Source of the DNA: a virus
DNA: 64,000 bases
IMG/VR virus record: IMGVR_UViG_3300037423_001503
Direction: 5' to 3' (one strand)
In this document: positions 53 through 30,526 of the stretch, one piece after another
Position numbering within the stretch: the first letter of the stretch is position 1
How the letters are laid out: each line of letters starts with the position of its first letter
Notes under the pieces: generated by a model
What the model was told of the DNA's origin: nothing
The model's database searches: none
What the model saw: only the letters and a program-made list of their open reading frames with translations
Made by a program: the position numbers and the translations under genes

Positions 53-125
53 TTGCAGGCCTAGGATTCGAACCCAGACTTCACGGCTTCAGAGGCCGGC
101 GGGCTGCCAGTTACACCAGCCTGCA
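53..125 (-). tRNA. trnQ: tRNA-Gln(CTG)
   Basis: Acceptor TGCAGGC/GCCTGCA (U1:A72), anticodon loop CTCTGAA, T-loop GGTTCGAATCC; no CCA. Confidence 0.92.
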
Positions 126-131
126 TTAGGA

Positions 132-203
132 ATGCGGGACTCGGGTTCGAACCGAGCCGATGAGCTTCAAAGGCTCACGTGCTGCCAGCTACACCATCCC
201 GCA
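132..203 (-). tRNA. trnQ: tRNA-Gln(TTG)
   Basis: Acceptor TGCGGGA/TCCCGCA, anticodon arm TGAGC-CTTTGAA-GCTCA, T-loop GGTTCGAACCC. Confidence 0.92.
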
Positions 204-218
204 GAGGAAGGAAGAGGA

Positions 219-240
219 ACTCTAGCACACTCTCGTGACA
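219..240 (-). promoter_or_regulatory. Promoter of tRNA cluster 1 (TGTCA-N11-TAGAGT)
   Basis: Same motif precedes the other two tRNA clusters (5742-5763, 11941-11962). Confidence 0.7.
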
Positions 241-1242: not shown

Positions 1243-2730
1243 ATGGCAGATTTAGACGTTGTCGACAAGGCGGCGGCCTGGTACGCTTCCTCCATGACCA
1301 ACGTACGCGCGGCGGACGCTCTGATGGCGAAGATCTTCGGCGAGGACGCTTGGCGCGTCGGTGGCAGCGTACGCGACGAAGTGCTGGGCCGGACGCCCAA
1401 AGACGGCGACTACGTCGTTCGCTCCCACACGCTCATCGAGATCAAGAACAAGCTGCGCCACGGACTGAACCCTGTCGGGCGTGTCGGCCACGATTTGGCG
1501 ATCACCAAGCTCGAACTCCGCACCGGCCAGCACGCCGGGTGGCGGGTCGGCGCGCCGTGGAATATCGAGATCATGATGCCGCGCGGCGAGCAGAAGGTCG
1601 CGAGCGACGAGGGCAACGAGCGGCACAAGTTCATCATCACGCTCGACCCCGACATGCCTCTGGAGGTCGACGCCCTGCGGCGCGACTTCACCATGAACGC
1701 CCTGTATCGGAACGTCGTCACCGGAGAGATTCACGACCCTCTGGGCGGTGTCGCAGCGATCGAGGACCGCGAGATCACGACGACCCATCCGTCGTCGTTC
1801 CGCGACGACCCTCTGCGTACACTGCGCGCTCTGCGCTTCGTGTCGCAGCTTGGCTTCGATCTCGACGATGACACGTACGGGCAGATGTTCGTGCACGCCA
1901 AGGCCGTCAATGGCGGGCTCACCGACAAGGGCGTCTCTGGGACCGCGTTCGATGAACTCTGCAAGATCCTTATGGGCCGGCATGTCGCGAAGGCGCTGCG
2001 GCTGGCGAGGGACTCGCGAGTTCTGGAGTCGCTGCTGCCGGAGCTTGCCCCCATGCTGGGTCACGATCCGCAGAACTCACACCACGCGTTCTCAACCGAC
2101 GAGCACACGTTCGTCGCGCTCGACGCGGCGGCCGGTTTTGGGCTGCCTCTGCGTGTACGGCTCGCGCTGCTCTTCCACGACGCCGGTAAGCCGCTCGTCG
2201 AATGGGTCGGAAAGGACGGTATGAAGCACTACTTCGAGTCCAAGGATCAGCCAGGATCGATCGATCACCAGGAAGCGTCGGCGGGGTTGTGGCTTGCCGT
2301 CGCGGAGCGCCTGAACGTACCGCGTTCACTGCGGCGCGATGTCGAGACGCTGATCCGCCGCCACATGGTGCCGCTGACGCTGCGCCTGAAGCCGGCGAAG
2401 GTGCGCAAGTGGCGATGCGAGCTTGGCGACGACCTGCTCGCAGATCTGCTGCGGCACCGGCTCTGCGACGTCATGGCCAAGGGCGTCATCGACTACGAGG
2501 CCATGCGTGCCGTCAACCGCATGGAGGGGATTCGCGAGGACGCCGTCCGCGATGGGGTGCCTGTGACGGTGCGCGACCTCCCCGTCTCGGGCGGTGACAT
2601 CGCAGCCATGGGGGTCAGCGGTCCTCGGATCGGTGAGATTCAGCGGCAGCTTCTTCACGAGGCGGTGTCACAGCCATCGAACAACACACGTGAGCGGCTG
2701 TATATGCGCGCACTGAAGCTGGCGGCTTGA
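1243..2730 (+). CDS. cca: CCA-adding enzyme / tRNA nucleotidyltransferase with HD domain
   Basis: VGGSVRD...KDGDY nucleotidyltransferase motif, DALRRDFTMNAL, DDPLRTLRALRF, LLFHDAGKP (HD). Confidence 0.93.
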   Translation: MADLDVVDKAAAWYASSMTNVRAADALMAKIFGEDAWRVGGSVRDEVLGRTPKDGDYVVRSHTLIEIKNKLRHGLNPVGRVGHDLAITKLELRTGQHAGWRVGAPWNIEIMMPRGEQKVASDEGNERHKFIITLDPDMPLEVDALRRDFTMNALYRNVVTGEIHDPLGGVAAIEDREITTTHPSSFRDDPLRTLRALRFVSQLGFDLDDDTYGQMFVHAKAVNGGLTDKGVSGTAFDELCKILMGRHVAKALRLARDSRVLESLLPELAPMLGHDPQNSHHAFSTDEHTFVALDAAAGFGLPLRVRLALLFHDAGKPLVEWVGKDGMKHYFESKDQPGSIDHQEASAGLWLAVAERLNVPRSLRRDVETLIRRHMVPLTLRLKPAKVRKWRCELGDDLLADLLRHRLCDVMAKGVIDYEAMRAVNRMEGIREDAVRDGVPVTVRDLPVSGGDIAAMGVSGPRIGEIQRQLLHEAVSQPSNNTRERLYMRALKLAA

Positions 2731-5168: not shown

Positions 5169-5253
5169 CGGAGAGACGGAGATTCGAACTCCGGTAGGTT
5201 TTACCCTTACGCGCTTTCCAGGCGCGCCCATTAGACCACTCTGGCACCTCTCC
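5169..5253 (-). tRNA. trnS: tRNA-Ser(GGA)
   Basis: CGCGC-CTGGAAA-GCGCG, long variable arm, G discriminator. Confidence 0.93.
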
Positions 5254-5258
5254 TCGGA

Positions 5259-5329
5259 AGTCTCGGAGCGGAATCGAACCGCTGTGTGCGGGGTTGCAGC
5301 CCGCCGCCTAGCCACTCGGCCACCGAGAC
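5259..5329 (-). tRNA. trnC: tRNA-Cys(GCA)
   Basis: Anticodon loop CTGCAAC, U discriminator. Confidence 0.92.
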
Positions 5330-5334
5330 GTGAG

Positions 5335-5420
5335 CGGAGAGACAGGGATTCGAACCCTGGAGGCTTGACACCTACTCGGCTAGCAACCGAGCGCATTCAA
5401 CCGGACTCTGCCACCTCTCC
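5335..5420 (-). tRNA. trnS: tRNA-Ser(GCT)
   Basis: CTCGG-TTGCTAG-CCGAG, long variable arm. Confidence 0.93.
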
Positions 5421-5425
5421 TGGAG

Positions 5426-5508
5426 CGGAAGCAGAGGGATTCGAACCCCCGACGGTTTTACCCGCAGCCGCTTTCAAGGCGGTGTCCTCGACCAACCGGA
5501 CTACTTCC
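5426..5508 (-). tRNA. trnS: tRNA-Ser(TGA)
   Basis: CCGC-CTTGAAA-GCGG, long variable arm. Confidence 0.92.
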
Positions 5509-5513
5509 GTGAG

Positions 5514-5600
5514 CGGATGGTAGAGGATTCGAACCTCTGAGGGTGTTACCCCTACTCGCTTTCGAGGCGAGCGCATTCAACCGGGCTCTGCCAACCATCC
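5514..5600 (-). tRNA. trnS: tRNA-Ser(CGA)
   Basis: CTCGC-CTCGAAA-GCGAG, long variable arm. Confidence 0.93.
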
Positions 5601-5605
5601 GAGAG

Positions 5606-5691
5606 TGCAGGGAGAGGGATTCGAACCCCCGTAGGCAATCAATACCGCCTGGTTTACAGCCAGGTACCTTTGTCCGCTCAGTCACCCCTGC
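5606..5691 (-). tRNA. trnY: tRNA-Tyr(GTA)
   Basis: CCTGG-CTGTAAA-CCAGG, long variable arm. Confidence 0.92.
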
Positions 5692-5741: not shown

Positions 5742-5763
5742 ACTCTAGCAGATCTACGCGACA
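5742..5763 (-). promoter_or_regulatory. Promoter of tRNA cluster 2 (TGTCG-N11-TAGAGT)
   Basis: Shares AGATCTGCTAGAGTT with the cluster 3 promoter. Confidence 0.7.
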
Positions 5764-10787: not shown

Positions 10788-10861
10788 TGGAGCCGGTCGG
10801 ATTCGAACCGACGGCCCTCCGCGTTTCAAACGGATGCTCTACCTGACTGAGCTACAACTCC
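10788..10861 (-). tRNA. trnF: tRNA-Phe(GAA)
   Basis: TCCGT-TTGAAAC-GCGGA; canonical D and T arms. Confidence 0.9.
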
Positions 10862-10930
10862 GAGCCCCGGGCTCACACCGGGAACCGTCATGCCCAACAT
10901 GACCCTTACGGACGCCCTTGGCGTCGGTGC
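10862..10930 (-). pseudogene. degenerate tRNA-like element (Pro-TGG-like anticodon arm)
   Basis: Three hairpins; GTCAT-GTTGGGC-ATGAC and CCCGG-TGTGAGC-CCGGG; acceptor stem incomplete. Confidence 0.4.
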
Positions 10931-10936
10931 ATTGAG

Positions 10937-11008
10937 AGCAGATGACCGGACTCGAACCGGCTCTTGAGGCTTGGAAGGCCGCCGTGCAACCAGTAACACT
11001 TCATCTGC
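10937..11008 (-). tRNA. trnG: tRNA-Gly(TCC)
   Basis: Anticodon loop CTTCCAA, U discriminator; A at position 8. Confidence 0.88.
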
Positions 11009-11012
11009 TTGA

Positions 11013-11084
11013 AGCTCCCGCAGAGACTTGAACTCTGCCCTCTCGGGTACGAACCGAGCACAACGCCATCTTTGCTTCAGGAGC
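11013..11084 (-). tRNA. trnT: tRNA-Thr(CGT)
   Basis: CTCGG-TTCGTAC-CCGAG; A at position 8. Confidence 0.88.
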
Positions 11085-11088
11085 GAAC

Positions 11089-11222
11089 TGGCCGGCGCTC
11101 TACCAATTGAGCTACAAGCGGGCGAAGAACCATCGAGGAGCGACCTCAAAAGTAATCCGACTCGACGTGCACATCGAGAAGGGTTGCCGCCAGGGCGGAC
11201 TCGAACCACCAACCTCCGGCCA
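11089..11222 (-). ncRNA. circularly permuted tRNA-like RNA (YrlA-like topology)
   Basis: T-arm half (11186-11222) precedes D-arm half (11089-11121), separated by a 64-nt structured insert; ends pair as TGGCCGG/CCGGCCA. Confidence 0.8.
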
Positions 11223-11224
11223 TA

Positions 11225-11298
11225 AGCCGACTGTGGGACTCGAACCCACGACATTCGTCTTACAAGGACGACGCTCTAGCCATCTGAGCTAAGTCGGC
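11225..11298 (-). tRNA. trnT: tRNA-Thr(TGT)
   Basis: TCGTC-CTTGTAA-GACGA. Confidence 0.93.
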
Positions 11299-11301
11299 GT
11301 A

Positions 11302-11373
11302 AGCTGCGACCGGGAATTGAACCCGGGACTCGACCGTACCAAGGTCGCGTGTTGCCACTAGCACTATCGCAGC
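11302..11373 (-). tRNA. trnT: tRNA-Thr(GGT)
   Basis: CGACC-TTGGTAC-GGTCG. Confidence 0.92.
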
Positions 11374-11376
11374 GTA

Positions 11377-11451
11377 TGCCCCTGGCAGGAATCGAACCTG
11401 CGTGCCGGTGGGTAAGAGCCACCTTCTAAAGCCAACTTTTGTTACAGAGGC
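11377..11451 (-). tRNA. trnK: tRNA-Lys(CTT), atypical D arm
   Basis: GGTGG-CTCTTAC-CCACC, T-loop GGTTCGATTCC; poorly paired D stem. Confidence 0.8.
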
Positions 11452-11454
11452 GGA

Positions 11455-11527
11455 AGTGGAAGACGGGACTCGAACCCGCGGCCTTCTCCATGGCAAGGAG
11501 ACGCTCTACCAACTGAGCTACATCCAC
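11455..11527 (-). tRNA. trnG: tRNA-Gly(GCC)
   Basis: TCTCC-TTGCCAT-GGAGA. Confidence 0.93.
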
Positions 11528-11532
11528 GTGAG

Positions 11533-11606
11533 TAGGTCCTCTGGGACTCGAACCCAGGACCTCCCGCGTATCAGACGGACGCTCTAACCAACTGAGCTAA
11601 GGACCT
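11533..11606 (-). tRNA. trnI: tRNA-Ile(GAT)
   Basis: Anticodon loop CTGATAC. Confidence 0.93.
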
Positions 11607-11612
11607 ATGAAG

Positions 11613-11685
11613 TGCTCGATGTAGGACTCGAACCTACGACCCCACGCTTGTAAGGCGCGTGCTCTCCCAACTGAGCTAATCGAGC
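11613..11685 (-). tRNA. trnV: tRNA-Val(TAC)
   Basis: Anticodon loop CTTACAA. Confidence 0.93.
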
Positions 11686-11689
11686 GGAG

Positions 11690-11762
11690 TGGAGGATACG
11701 GGACTCGAACCCGTGGCTTCCAGCATGCCATGCTGGCGCTCTCCCAACTGAGCTAATCCCCC
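11690..11762 (-). tRNA. trnA: tRNA-Ala(GGC)
   Basis: CCAGC-ATGGCAT-GCTGG; G3:U70. Confidence 0.93.
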
Positions 11763-11827
11763 GCAGCTAGTTGATAACGGTGCTAGCTCACCGAGTCCGG
11801 AGTTAGGGCCTCCGGACTAGGAACCCA

Positions 11828-11901
11828 TGGACCTAGAGGGATTCGAACCCTCAACCCTCTGCGTGCAAAGCAGGCGCTCTACCAATTGGAGCTACAGGCC
11901 C
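11828..11901 (-). tRNA. trnA: tRNA-Ala(TGC)
   Basis: Anticodon loop TTTGCAC; G3:U70. Confidence 0.93.
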
Positions 11902-21812: not shown

Positions 21813-22457
21813 CTACTTACCCGAATCGAGAGCGTTGAGTGCTCGCTGTGCGCCGGCTCGATCGCCTCGTGCGAGCGCCGCCTCGGCGGCCTGGTCGGCG
21901 GCCTTCGCCTGTGCGTCTACCGTGATGGCGACCTTGGTGGTCTGGCGCTGGAAGCTCGTCAACGCGGTCGTGCACAGCGTGGGCATGTTGAAGAAGTCCA
22001 TGTACTGGCCGCCCGGCGTGAAGCCGTAGCGATATGGCGGAGGCGAGCCGTGGTACATGCCGTCGACAGACCGCCGCTCTGGCGTGTACTCGGGGTGAGC
22101 GGCGTTGTGATCGCCTCGCCAGGCACGCGACGACGGGAAAAACGAGACGCTCGACGAGGTCAGCTTGCCGGCGATCGGGATCGTCACCAACGGCGCGCTC
22201 GCGTTGCCCCACGTGGTGGTGCACCAGATGATCGTGTTGGGGTTCGCGTAGAGACGCTGCGCAGCCGTGTAGTTCTTGAACTCCGGCGACGGCCAGGTCG
22301 GTACGAACGGACGCGTCGTGTTCGAGCGGGCGTCGATCTGGGAGAGGATGTCTCCGGCGTTGTCGGCGACCGACACGGCGAGCGTGCCTCCGCAGCCTGC
22401 GGCGAGTACTAGCAGCGCGGCCAACCAGGCCGGGCTGATCTTCTTCAGGATCTTCAA
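21813..22457 (-). CDS. lipoprotein
   Basis: GAAAGGAG RBS, TTG start, lipobox AAGC; TTGACA-17-TAATGT promoter upstream. Confidence 0.75.
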   Translation of the reverse strand: MKILKKISPAWLAALLVLAAGCGGTLAVSVADNAGDILSQIDARSNTTRPFVPTWPSPEFKNYTAAQRLYANPNTIIWCTTTWGNASAPLVTIPIAGKLTSSSVSFFPSSRAWRGDHNAAHPEYTPERRSVDGMYHGSPPPYRYGFTPGGQYMDFFNMPTLCTTALTSFQRQTTKVAITVDAQAKAADQAAEAALARGDRAGAQRALNALDSGK

Positions 22458-22526
22458 GGTTCTCCTTTCAGGAGTGGAGTAGATGTCGCGAACATTAGCC
22501 GGTCCGCGTCGGCGTGTCAAGTCTTT

Positions 22527-22822
22527 GCTAGCCTCGATAGCCGGGGTTCTGTTCCGCCATCGGCGGCGCTGACCATCTATCTACGCCTTGCGGCGTCCGT
22601 CATCTCTCAACGTGACGGTTCTCTCACCATGACCTCCTCCGGATGTCCTCAGGAGGTCGAACTTGAGATCTCATCCAGGCCTCGGCGAACTGCTGGCTTA
22701 TTAGGCTTTGCTCTCGTGGTCCAAGCGGTCAAAGACCTCCCACCGGCCGATTACGCCGAGTTAGCCTCGACGTGGATGCCCCGAACTTCCTCTACGTCTC
22801 CGCAGCGGCCAGCCCGGCTAGC
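22527..22822 (-). ncRNA. rnpB: RNase P RNA (compact, type A-like catalytic domain)
   Basis: P1 GCTAGCC/GGCTAGC; GAGGAAGTTCGGG and ACAGAACCCCGGCTA forming P4 with bulged U; TAGATAGATGG before P2; P3, P5, P15(GGT), P18(GCAA), P19; own promoter TTGAAC-16-TAGAGT. Confidence 0.88.
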
Positions 22823-23024
22823 CCTGTGACTCTAGCAGATATCTGATCTGGTTCAAGGCTCGCATGGCGTCCACTTCGGGCGCTCCGCCGTCAGGAGAGT
22901 CCGCACCGGCGATTCTCATCAACGACAACACCGCGCAGACGAGCGTCGTGTCCTCGAACTTCAGTAGTTCCTTGGACGGCGCGGCCTCGTAGACCTCATC
23001 GACGGAGAAGCGCGTGAACATCAC
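22818..23024 (-). CDS. hypothetical protein
   Basis: Operonic; its 3' end carries the RNase P RNA promoter. Confidence 0.55.
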   Translation of the reverse strand: MMFTRFSVDEVYEAAPSKELLKFEDTTLVCAVLSLMRIAGADSPDGGAPEVDAMRALNQIRYLLESQG

Positions 23025-23227
23025 TCTGATGGGTAGAGAAATTGGAATGCCGCGGGATCAAAGGAGAAGCCGAAGTGGTGGATCTCATCATCTACGCGTT
23101 GGAGCACCAGTGTTCCAAGTCCCGGAATCACGACGTCGATGTCCTGCTCAGTCTTCCCATCTCCGTAGTCTCGTGGCTCGTGGTAGTCGATCTCGGCGTC
23201 GGTCTGTCTCGTATCAACAGGGCGCAC
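23021..23227 (-). CDS. hypothetical protein
   Basis: Operonic overlap. Confidence 0.55.
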   Translation of the reverse strand: MRPVDTRQTDAEIDYHEPRDYGDGKTEQDIDVVIPGLGTLVLQRVDDEIHHFGFSFDPAAFQFLYPSE

Positions 23228-23759
23228 AAAGACGGCTTTCTAGGGCTAGATGCCTCTGTAGAGCGCCGAGCCCGATCAGGAGCTTGGCGTTGTCGGCTAT
23301 GTCGATCATGTCTTCGATATCGCGTAGTTCGACGCCGAACGACCGCACGTCTTCGTCGACATCGTATTCGACGCCTTCTGCTTTCGAAAGCCCGGTCGCC
23401 AAGTAGAGATGCGTGAACTCGTCGGTGATGCCCTCAGAGGTGTAGAAGGCAGCGACGCGCAGCCATCGCTGCGCAGCCAGCCCGAACTCCTCGGCAAGCT
23501 CGCGCTTAGCCGCCGCCATTGGCTGCTCGCCTTCGTCGATCTTGCCCGCGCAGAGCGAGACAACGCGCCGGCCAGTGACCTCGCGTGGCTGCTCGCCGAC
23601 GTAGAAGAACTCGTCATCAAAGGGCAGCACCGCGACAACATCGCCAGGCGTGACCCACTCTCGCTCGACAGTCGACCCGTCTTCGCGCTGGAAGACGCCC
23701 CACTTGACCGTAAACCGCCGGCCCTCGTAATGTGTCTTCTCAAGAAGCTTCTTGATCAT
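23214..23759 (-). CDS. Nudix hydrolase (ADP-ribose pyrophosphatase-like)
   Basis: Nudix box AGKIDEGEQPMAAAKRELAEEFG; YTSEGITDE. Confidence 0.9.
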   Translation of the reverse strand: MIKKLLEKTHYEGRRFTVKWGVFQREDGSTVEREWVTPGDVVAVLPFDDEFFYVGEQPREVTGRRVVSLCAGKIDEGEQPMAAAKRELAEEFGLAAQRWLRVAAFYTSEGITDEFTHLYLATGLSKAEGVEYDVDEDVRSFGVELRDIEDMIDIADNAKLLIGLGALQRHLALESRLCAPC

Positions 23760-24037
23760 CGAGACAACTCCTTCCATCGATTGACGCGGGCAACGAGATC
23801 AGGCCGGCCCCAGAAGTTCGGCGACGTAGCTCGAACTGTGTCGGCAGCGTCTTCGAGCGCGCCCTGCAAGGCCTGCATGAGAGGCGCAAGCTCTTCGTAG
23901 ACGTAGTCGGCGTATCGATCAGCATCGATCGAGGGCATGCGATAGTCGGCAGCGAGGGAGCGCTCAAGCTCTTCGTAGTCGTCCCAGATTCGGTTGGCGG
24001 CGCGATCCAAGGCTGCGTTGATGTCAGTCGCGGACAA
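23756..24037 (-). CDS. hypothetical protein
   Basis: Operonic ORF. Confidence 0.6.
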   Translation of the reverse strand: MSATDINAALDRAANRIWDDYEELERSLAADYRMPSIDADRYADYVYEELAPLMQALQGALEDAADTVRATSPNFWGRPDLVARVNRWKELSR

Positions 24038-30380: not shown

Positions 30381-30492
30381 GAAGCCGAGAGCGTCAATTC
30401 GGGATGTCGTCGGGGTAGCGCCCGACCAACGGTAAGTTATAGGTCATGGCCGGTGGTCCGGCCAAACGTTGCTTTGCCTATCACTTGAAAGC

Positions 30493-30526
30493 GCGGACGG
30501 TGGGGTTCGATTCCCCACCGCCCGCA
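30493..30526 (+). ncRNA. tRNA acceptor/T minihelix-like hairpin in early leader
   Basis: 13-bp stem (one mismatch) closing GG-TTCGATT-CC loop. Confidence 0.55.

Follow-up and report, generated by a model that had tools for sequence, protein, structure and literature searches.

A soil phage of actinobacteria, with a genome of about 140 kb, carries a 296-nt gene whose sequence and predicted fold confirm it as a diverged homolog of the bacterial class A RNase P RNA. We put the probability that this gene encodes a functional, slimmed-down class A-type RNase P RNA acting on the phage's own tRNAs at roughly 70%, its catalysis being predicted. RNase P is the RNA enzyme that removes the 5' leader from new tRNAs, and its RNA is regarded as a housekeeping ribozyme universal to cells; a full-text literature search turned up no description of an RNase P RNA encoded by a phage. 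The stretch of DNA analyzed here, 64,000 nucleotides and called the window below, makes up the first 64 kb of a virus record of 139,534 bp, about 99% complete and with 62% G+C; its few protein matches point to Gordonia phages. An earlier note on this DNA had read the gene as a compact, phage-encoded RNase P RNA with its own promoter, and at the level of sequence that interpretation is supported; its further suggestion, that the RNA might help to mature the phage's tRNA arrays with the host protein RnpA, appears reasonable. The gene lies as follows.

22527-22822, minus strand: RNase P-like RNA gene, 296 nt (RF00010 global match and helix parse; RNA nucleotide n is window position 22823-n)

The RNA is more stable than each of 100 shuffles of its sequence, with a minimum-free-energy z of -4.2. 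With permissive thresholds, the Rfam model of bacterial class A RNase P RNA (RF00010) aligned globally, from model position 1 to 367, to 22521-22824 with 28.4 bits and an E-value of 4.9e-7, and it was the sole Rfam match within 22300-23050. The model matched P1-P3, GAGGAA..., P15-P18, UAGAUnGAUGG and ACAGAAC...CGGCU, and skipped the specificity domain. The proposed covariance-model check therefore came out in part: the alignment is full-length and significant, but 28.4 bits falls short of the gathering cut-off of 100 bits, and at curated thresholds Rfam reports tRNAs only, and no RNase P RNA, in the window. The gap had also been described as free of any credible open reading frame, which agrees with the lack of PHROG family support for the two frames of at least 30 codons, one per strand, that lie within or abut the gene. 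A substring-and-pairing check recovered every element that had been listed, in place and on the minus strand, and the parsed gene reads as follows.

22822-22816 and 22533-22527, minus strand: P1, GCUAGCC/GGCUAGC (pairing check)
22807-22813 and 22568-22574, minus strand: P2, GCUGGCC/GGUCAGC (both sides changed in 7 of 14 compared pairs)
22792-22805, minus strand: P3 hairpin, CUGCG-GAGA-CGUAG (pairing check)
22779-22788, minus strand: 5' strand of P4, AAGUUCGGGG, with bulged U, CR-I region (E. coli register)
22669-22671, minus strand: J5/15, AGA, its middle base being G where E. coli has A248 (comparison with the family)
22622-22668, minus strand: P15, UCUC/GAGA, enclosing the P16/17 hairpin (pairing check)
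22626-22630, minus strand: L15, AUGGU (GGU), RNA nt 193-197, directly 5' of the 3' strand of P15
22597-22618, minus strand: extra hairpin PA, between P15 and P18 (in all clade members)
22583-22596, minus strand: P18, ACGCC-GCAA-GGCGU (pairing check and covariation)
22575-22582, minus strand: J18/2, AGAUAGAU (E. coli AGAUGAAU; RF00010 alignment)
22583-22574, minus strand: linker AGAUAGAUG (from the sequence)
22554-22566, minus strand: P19 hairpin, CCGCC/GGCGG (remodelled yet paired in the related contigs L130 and L141)
22538-22552, minus strand: J2/4 and 3' strand of P4, ACAGAACCCCGGCUA, CR-V region (E. coli register and RF00010)

The catalytic-domain helices P1, P2, P3, P5 (CAUCCA/UGGAUG), P15 and P18 are all there in canonical order, and the core joints are retained, namely GAGGAAG..., ACAGAAC, AGAUAGAUG and the GGU beside the 3' strand of P15. 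The GGU of L15/16 pairs with the 3' RCCA of tRNA; its equivalents in two related viral contigs are AAGGUU (L141) and AAGGUA (L099). An alternative 8-bp P1, AGCCUUGA/UCGAGGCU, was rejected, as it runs into the -35 box and would lie upstream of the likely transcription start. Both P4 strands originally named, GAGGAAGUUCGGGG and ACAGAACCCCGGCUA, are present, and when they are compared ungapped with those of E. coli rnpB (motifs at nt 61 and 347), all eight pairs and the bulged U are kept in the E. coli register, 66-74/353-360. Pair 71-356 has gone from C-G in E. coli to G-C and pair 67-359 from A-U to G-C, which makes two double compensatory changes, and pair 68-358 is U-G. The P4 with a bulged U is thereby upheld. 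A register-shifted P4 was considered and is needless, because either of two adjacent U's can be the bulge and the canonical register holds.

The window RNA belongs to a viral family, found by scanning IMG/VR with each half of its P4. The 5' half, GAGGAAGTTCGGGG, has many chance matches; in eight contigs ACAGAACCCCGGCT follows after 170-420 nt, the canonical CCCGGCTT was never found at that distance in the 5'-half scan, and all nine 5'-half loci with ACAGAA...CGGCU 170-420 nt downstream have the exact 3' variant of the window. The 3' half, ACAGAACCCCGGCTAT, occurs in 25 IMG/VR contigs, about 21 of which also have AAGTTCG... upstream, and both P4 strands of the window are common to about 25 viral contigs. 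The G+C content of these contigs runs from 36% to 62%, and tRNA and tmRNA genes abound in them; the pattern that defines the family, AAGUUCGGGG paired with ACAGAACCCCGGCUA in a tRNA-rich viral contig, is found in the window. Scores against RF00010 descend from 255 bits (L137) and 191 bits (L048), both full class A RNAs, through 67 (L124), 64 (L128) and 51 bits (L126) to 28 bits for the window RNA and 27 for L130, a gradient that places the window RNA at the diverged end of a real viral RNase P RNA lineage. The homology that the earlier note had proposed is thus carried by a full-length match below threshold together with viral homologs graded up to 191-255 bits. In other family members, the RNase P RNA gene lies within or beside tRNA arrays. 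A blastn search of 50,697 GenBank phage records with the window RNA and two family members gave no match, so no cultured carrier was found at blastn sensitivity.

Three relatives bear most directly on the structure: L130, a 139.9-kb virus contig alike in the gene and its flanks, whose RNA is about 97% identical to that of the window; L141, an 80-kb contig with the tRNA-array gene order of the window; and L099, a 90-kb contig with the same RNA architecture. By the substring-and-pairing check, the four RNAs have 12-13 helices in common, in identical order. Directly upstream of the L141 RNase P RNA, at L141:5372-5454 on the minus strand, lies a tmRNA-like match (RF00023, 44.6 bits against a cut-off of 47); nothing comparable was found upstream of the window RNA gene.

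What has been lost is most of the specificity domain.

22678-22772, minus strand: reduced specificity region, 95 nt between the P5 strands (helix parse)

The corresponding length is about 164 nt in E. coli, 135 in L048 and 156 in L137. Within its 95 nt the window RNA has a hairpin at the P5.1 position with a GCUAA loop, a helix Px (GGCC/GGCC), a P7-like helix of 4 bp (GUGG/CCAC) and a 3-bp mini hairpin, as well as a conserved AGUU(C)GCC(G/A)A and a conserved module that runs GUGG, GAG, mini hairpin, CGCUUGGA, CCAC. Where L141 and L099 have a GCAC-capped hairpin, the window RNA has an A-rich stretch of 24 nt. The helix parse found no P8, P9 or P12-P14 in this region, in agreement with the much-reduced specificity domain first described; a canonical T-loop reader and a P8 receptor for L18 are consequently missing, and with the T-loop-reading module (P8-P14, CR-II/III) gone, the usual mode of recognizing the tRNA elbow would be impossible. 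For the P7-like helix, a rival pairing, GGUG/CGCC, was dropped in view of real double changes in the family (GCGG/CCGC, AUCG/CGAU and GUAG/CUAC, the last two read by inspection of the sequences). A P6 pseudoknot between J5/7 and L17 (4 bp, CCGG/CCGG) is possible by eye, overlapping Px and without covariation support. The likeness of GAGAGCAAAG to E. coli J11/12 is read as fortuitous, since at that place L141 and L099 form a GC hairpin. Elsewhere in the family, at L110:11969-12445 on the minus strand, the variable hairpin of the S-region holds a 239-nt insertion.

The phage genome offers such an RNA a set of candidate partners. Its 26 tRNA genes form tight arrays with spacers of 3-6 nt, most of the genes lack an encoded CCA, and a gene for a CCA-adding enzyme accompanies them; no RnpA gene (PF00825) was found in the genome.

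5169-5691, minus strand: tRNA array, spacers of 3-6 nt, CCA almost never encoded
10788-11901, minus strand: tRNA array, spacers of 3-6 nt, CCA almost never encoded
1243-2730, plus strand: tRNA nucleotidyltransferase (CCA-adding enzyme) gene (PF01743, 63.8 bits; phrog_2244, E 1.7e-45)

Two tRNA-Gln genes at window positions 53-203 (minus strand) continue into six tRNAs at genome positions 138917-139406 (minus strand), evidently one array split by the linearization point, so that the record looks circularly permuted or terminally arbitrary. A lone tRNA-Ala(TGC) of 79 nt, with its anticodon at position 29, was called by ARAGORN alone at 30447-30525 on the plus strand, opposite to the arrays; it is absent from the output of the Rfam tRNA model at the gathering threshold and may be spurious or a tRNA-like element.

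The RNA gene stands by itself, about 10 kb from the nearest tRNA array, and is linked to the arrays by the sequence in front of it.

22851-22856, minus strand: -35-like hexamer TTGAAC, kept in L130
22834-22829, minus strand: -10-like TAGAGT, 16 nt after TTGAAC
22829-22840, minus strand: extended -10-like ATCTGCTAGAGT, 6 nt before P1
11941-11952, minus strand: ATCTGCTAGAGT, 39 nt upstream of tRNA array 11901-10788
5742-5753, minus strand: ATCTGCTAGAGT, 50 nt upstream of tRNA array 5691-5169
219-227, minus strand: fourth copy of the shorter TGCTAGAGT, 15 nt upstream of tRNA-Gln (5' end 203)

ATCTGCTAGAGT has three copies in the window, each on the minus strand, and no others elsewhere in the genome; shuffling gives an expectation of 0.23 in the window, and none of 100 shuffles reached three. 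The shorter TGCTAGAGT occurs four times in 139.5 kb, every copy lying directly in front of a tRNA array or the window RNA. In L130 both promoter hexamers are conserved and the spacer has three changes. The elements of the TTGAAC-16-TAGAGT promoter that had been proposed are present, with an extended -10-like element common to the tRNA arrays. A simple promoter and terminator scan called no promoter, TTGAAC/TAGAGT having 8 of 12 matches and falling under its threshold, and the promoter claim hence rests on the repeated 12-mer; the same scan found no intrinsic terminator after the RNA gene, and a TTGACA-17-TAATGT element, for the next gene, starts 7 nt after P1. Transcription would start about 7 nt after TAGAGT, at 22822, which is the first base of P1, or at a base adjacent to it. 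A 229-nt contig from a rhizosphere RNA library, 22568-22796, lies wholly inside the gene and lends weak support to transcription, carried-over DNA being a possible source; RNA-library cover is absent on the flanks of the gene and is uninformative there. Just upstream of the RNA gene lies a NUDIX hydrolase-like gene (23214-23777, minus strand; phrog_1185, E 1e-10), and RNA 5' ends are a possible substrate of NUDIX enzymes.

Taken together, the most economical reading is that the phage makes an extra RNase P RNA along with its tRNAs and would use the host's protein for it. The RNA would have its own promoter, one of the type that drives the tRNA arrays, and would fold into a complete catalytic domain (P1-P5, P15 with its GGU, P18, J18/2, J2/4 and J5/15) beside a specificity domain of 95 nt. 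In the infected cell it would most likely assemble with host RnpA, a compatibility that we assume. The resulting holoenzyme is predicted to act on the roughly 26 tightly packed, CCA-less tRNA precursors, cleaving their 5' leaders and their spacers of 3-6 nt; given such short spacers, cleavage by RNase P would by itself be enough to release the tRNAs from one another, and the phage CCA-adding enzyme could then complete their 3' ends.

One residue hints at a closer fit between this RNA and its presumed substrates. E. coli A248 is a neighbor of the tRNA 5' end, and bacteria, M. tuberculosis among them, conserve it well (PMC10465520). The equivalent position, the middle base of J5/15, is G in the window, L130, L141 and L099 (AGA in the first two, CGA in the last two), whereas all 18 other family members scored have A there (CAA or UAA). 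The nucleotide preceding the mature tRNA, N(-1), differs along the same line, and is C in 14 of the 26 tRNAs of the window phage.

Phages with A at 248, own tRNAs: N(-1) is U in 135 of 181 and C in 25 of 181
G248 clade, own tRNAs: N(-1) is C in 31 of 55 and U in 10 of 55
Host-type actinobacterial genome, tRNAs: N(-1) is C in 8 of 35

The excess of C(-1) in the G248 clade over the A248 phages has a Fisher's exact p of about 1e-9 when tRNAs are treated as independent; as all G248 members fall in one phage clade, the association amounts to about one evolutionary event. The literature disagrees on base pairing between residue 248 and N(-1) (PMC10465520), and in mycobacteria A248 goes together with a rare U(-1) (PMC6582537). 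We treat the association as a lead. It is conceivable, if rather less than an even bet, that the phage ribozyme and its own tRNA precursors co-evolved at the cleavage site, A248 changing to G as U(-1) changed to C(-1). If true, this would amount to evidence from nature that residue 248 and N(-1) make a base-specific contact, a disputed point for bacterial RNase P, and also to evidence of a phage RNase P that prefers phage tRNAs.

Two other functions deserve to be weighed against tRNA processing by the phage's own RNase P RNA. The RNA might be a look-alike that cuts no tRNA and acts as a decoy for host RnpA or pre-tRNAs, retuning or shutting down host RNase P. Such a role would suit an RNA that keeps the protein-contacting core (P2-P4, J18/2 and P15), has largely lost its substrate-reading S-domain, comes from a phage in which no RnpA was found, and appears to be expressed strongly, in the manner of tRNAs; we nevertheless consider it unlikely, since the positions for chemistry and docking (the bulged U of P4, ACAGAA and the GGU of L15) are conserved across a family that includes full class A RNAs, a phage bearing 26 tRNA genes requires additional RNase P activity, not a reduction, and the identity of residue 248 goes along with that of the leaders on the phage's own tRNAs. 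About equally improbable is a repurposed RNase P-derived RNA with another substrate or role, for instance on phage mRNAs, tmRNA-like RNAs or structured transcripts. The remodelled S-domain, with its clade-specific conserved single-stranded segments (AGUUGCCAA and GAG/CGCUUGGA), and the solitary position of the gene would fit such a change of duty, but the promoter is common to the tRNA arrays, the genes of other family members lie inside or beside such arrays, and the CCA-binding GGU is still in place.

A decaying, non-functional remnant of a captured rnpB is less probable than either. The window RNA and L130, at 28 and 27 bits, do stand at the bottom of the family's RF00010 scores, and the A-rich stretch of 24 nt has replaced a hairpin still present in L141 and L099; the pairing record, on the other hand, is that of a maintained structure. 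MAFFT alone misaligns the long-range helices of this family; pairing was assessed by anchored parsing together with tests of cognate against non-cognate pairing. Ten helices (P1, P2, P3, P5, the P5.1-position hairpin, Px, the P7-like helix, P15, PA and P18) are fully paired in all four of the window, L130, L141 and L099, and P16/17 and P19 in three of these RNAs. Eight equal-length helices served to compare the window with L141 and L099 as independent clade members: of 82 pair comparisons, 30 were changed on both sides, 46 unchanged, 6 one-sided and 0 broken. L130 differs from the window in the P5.1-like stem (U-G to U-A and A-U to G-U) with pairing kept and, in the L18 loop, has GCGA for GCAA, so that the GNRA loop is preserved too, and in the wider family P1, P2 and P5 occur with unrelated sequences, P1 in every member, and they covary. 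The covariation in related phages that the earlier note had called for is thus found in eight helices, and P4 has double-sided changes relative to E. coli. Such purifying selection on structure argues against decay, as do the conserved promoter and the recurrence of this DNA across samples: 97% of the words sampled from the stretch occur in each of eight soil or rhizosphere metagenome runs, and 46-88% in a further three.

The assembly graphs of two soil metagenomes are interrupted precisely at the two ends of the RNA gene, leaving a piece of 321 nt (22523-22843) that is deeper than its flanks (118.6 against 98.9 on the covered side in X1; 96.5 against 74-77 in X3); it looks as if several co-occurring phage strains share the RNA gene and differ around it.

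The gene is also phage-borne, as first proposed, and not host DNA. It lies mid-contig in a virus record that is 99% complete, and a near-identical copy lies in a second virus contig of 140 kb. Cellular genomes were searched through one representative for each of 185,579 species. The 17-mer of the 3' half has 101 matches there, of which 94 are without the partner 5' strand and two have it; both paired matches (L186 and L238) are on short phage-like contigs binned in metagenome-assembled genomes of Chitinophagales and Nitrososphaerales, and are probably phage fragments that were mis-binned. The six other matches examined all lie in Bacteroidota and are ends of coding sequences (...KQNPGY-stop), unrelated to RNase P RNA. 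The window P4 variant was not found among the cellular RNase P RNAs examined, and a sample of 401 genomes from the order of a Williamsia metagenome-assembled genome, the host-type stand-in, contained no instance of the paired pattern; control actinobacterial RNase P RNAs have a canonical P4 and score 217-299 bits against RF00010. A misassembly or a recently captured host rnpB, which has in its favor only the general possibility attached to metagenome-derived contigs, is effectively refuted by the independent 139.9-kb contig with the same gene and flanks, the mid-contig position, the canonical P4 and high scores of the actinobacterial RNAs, and the scarcity of the paired variant on cellular contigs.

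Compared with class A RNase P RNA as typified by the E. coli M1 RNA (rnpB, RF00010), the window RNA is alike in P1-P5, the P4 pseudoknot with its bulged U, the GGU loop of P15, P16/17, P18, an optional P19 and the joints J3/4, J5/15, J18/2 and J2/4, all in identical order. It differs in its length (296 nt against 377), in an S-domain of 95 rather than about 164 nt that is without P8, P9 and P12-P14, in a hairpin at the type-B P5.1 position and an extra hairpin between P15 and P18, in three changed P4 pairs, in having G for A248 and in being encoded by a phage. Class B RNAs (RF00011) are marked by the presence of P5.1, P10.1 and P15.1 and the absence of P6, P13, P14, P16 and P17; the window RNA has the hairpin at the P5.1 position, but its P15-P16/17 arm is of class A type, it has nothing like P10.1 or P15.1, and Rfam reported class A only. 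Nearer in spirit are the additional RPR homologs with altered specificity domains in Mycobacterium austroafricanum and M. sp. YC-RL4 (Behra et al., 2022; PMC9569102), which have an adjacent endonuclease gene and occur along with a phage-like extra tmRNA, and for which the authors suspected horizontal transfer and left the function open. Those RNAs were reported on bacterial chromosomes (PMC9569102), the window RNA lies in a phage.

If the window RNA is active, phages equipped with many tRNAs would bring along the catalyst that processes them as well, and here RNase P RNA, tRNAs and CCA-adding enzyme would together form a portable tRNA-maturation kit. The match between G248 enzyme and C(-1) substrates would then be a natural experiment on active-site recognition, and the natural, repeatedly trimmed S-domains would show how little RNA suffices in vivo. 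Current annotation pipelines miss such genes, as 28 bits against a threshold of 100 makes plain. Minimal RNase P RNAs are familiar from the type T of Thermoproteaceae, from Mycoplasma fermentans and from the Mini-M1 construct, in which the S-domain is reduced or absent and the catalytic domain kept, and which are still active, usually with protein or at high salt (see Lai et al., 2010). Those RNAs are cellular (archaeal or bacterial) or man-made, whereas the window RNA is viral, retains a different remnant of the S-domain and bears a P4 signature of its own.
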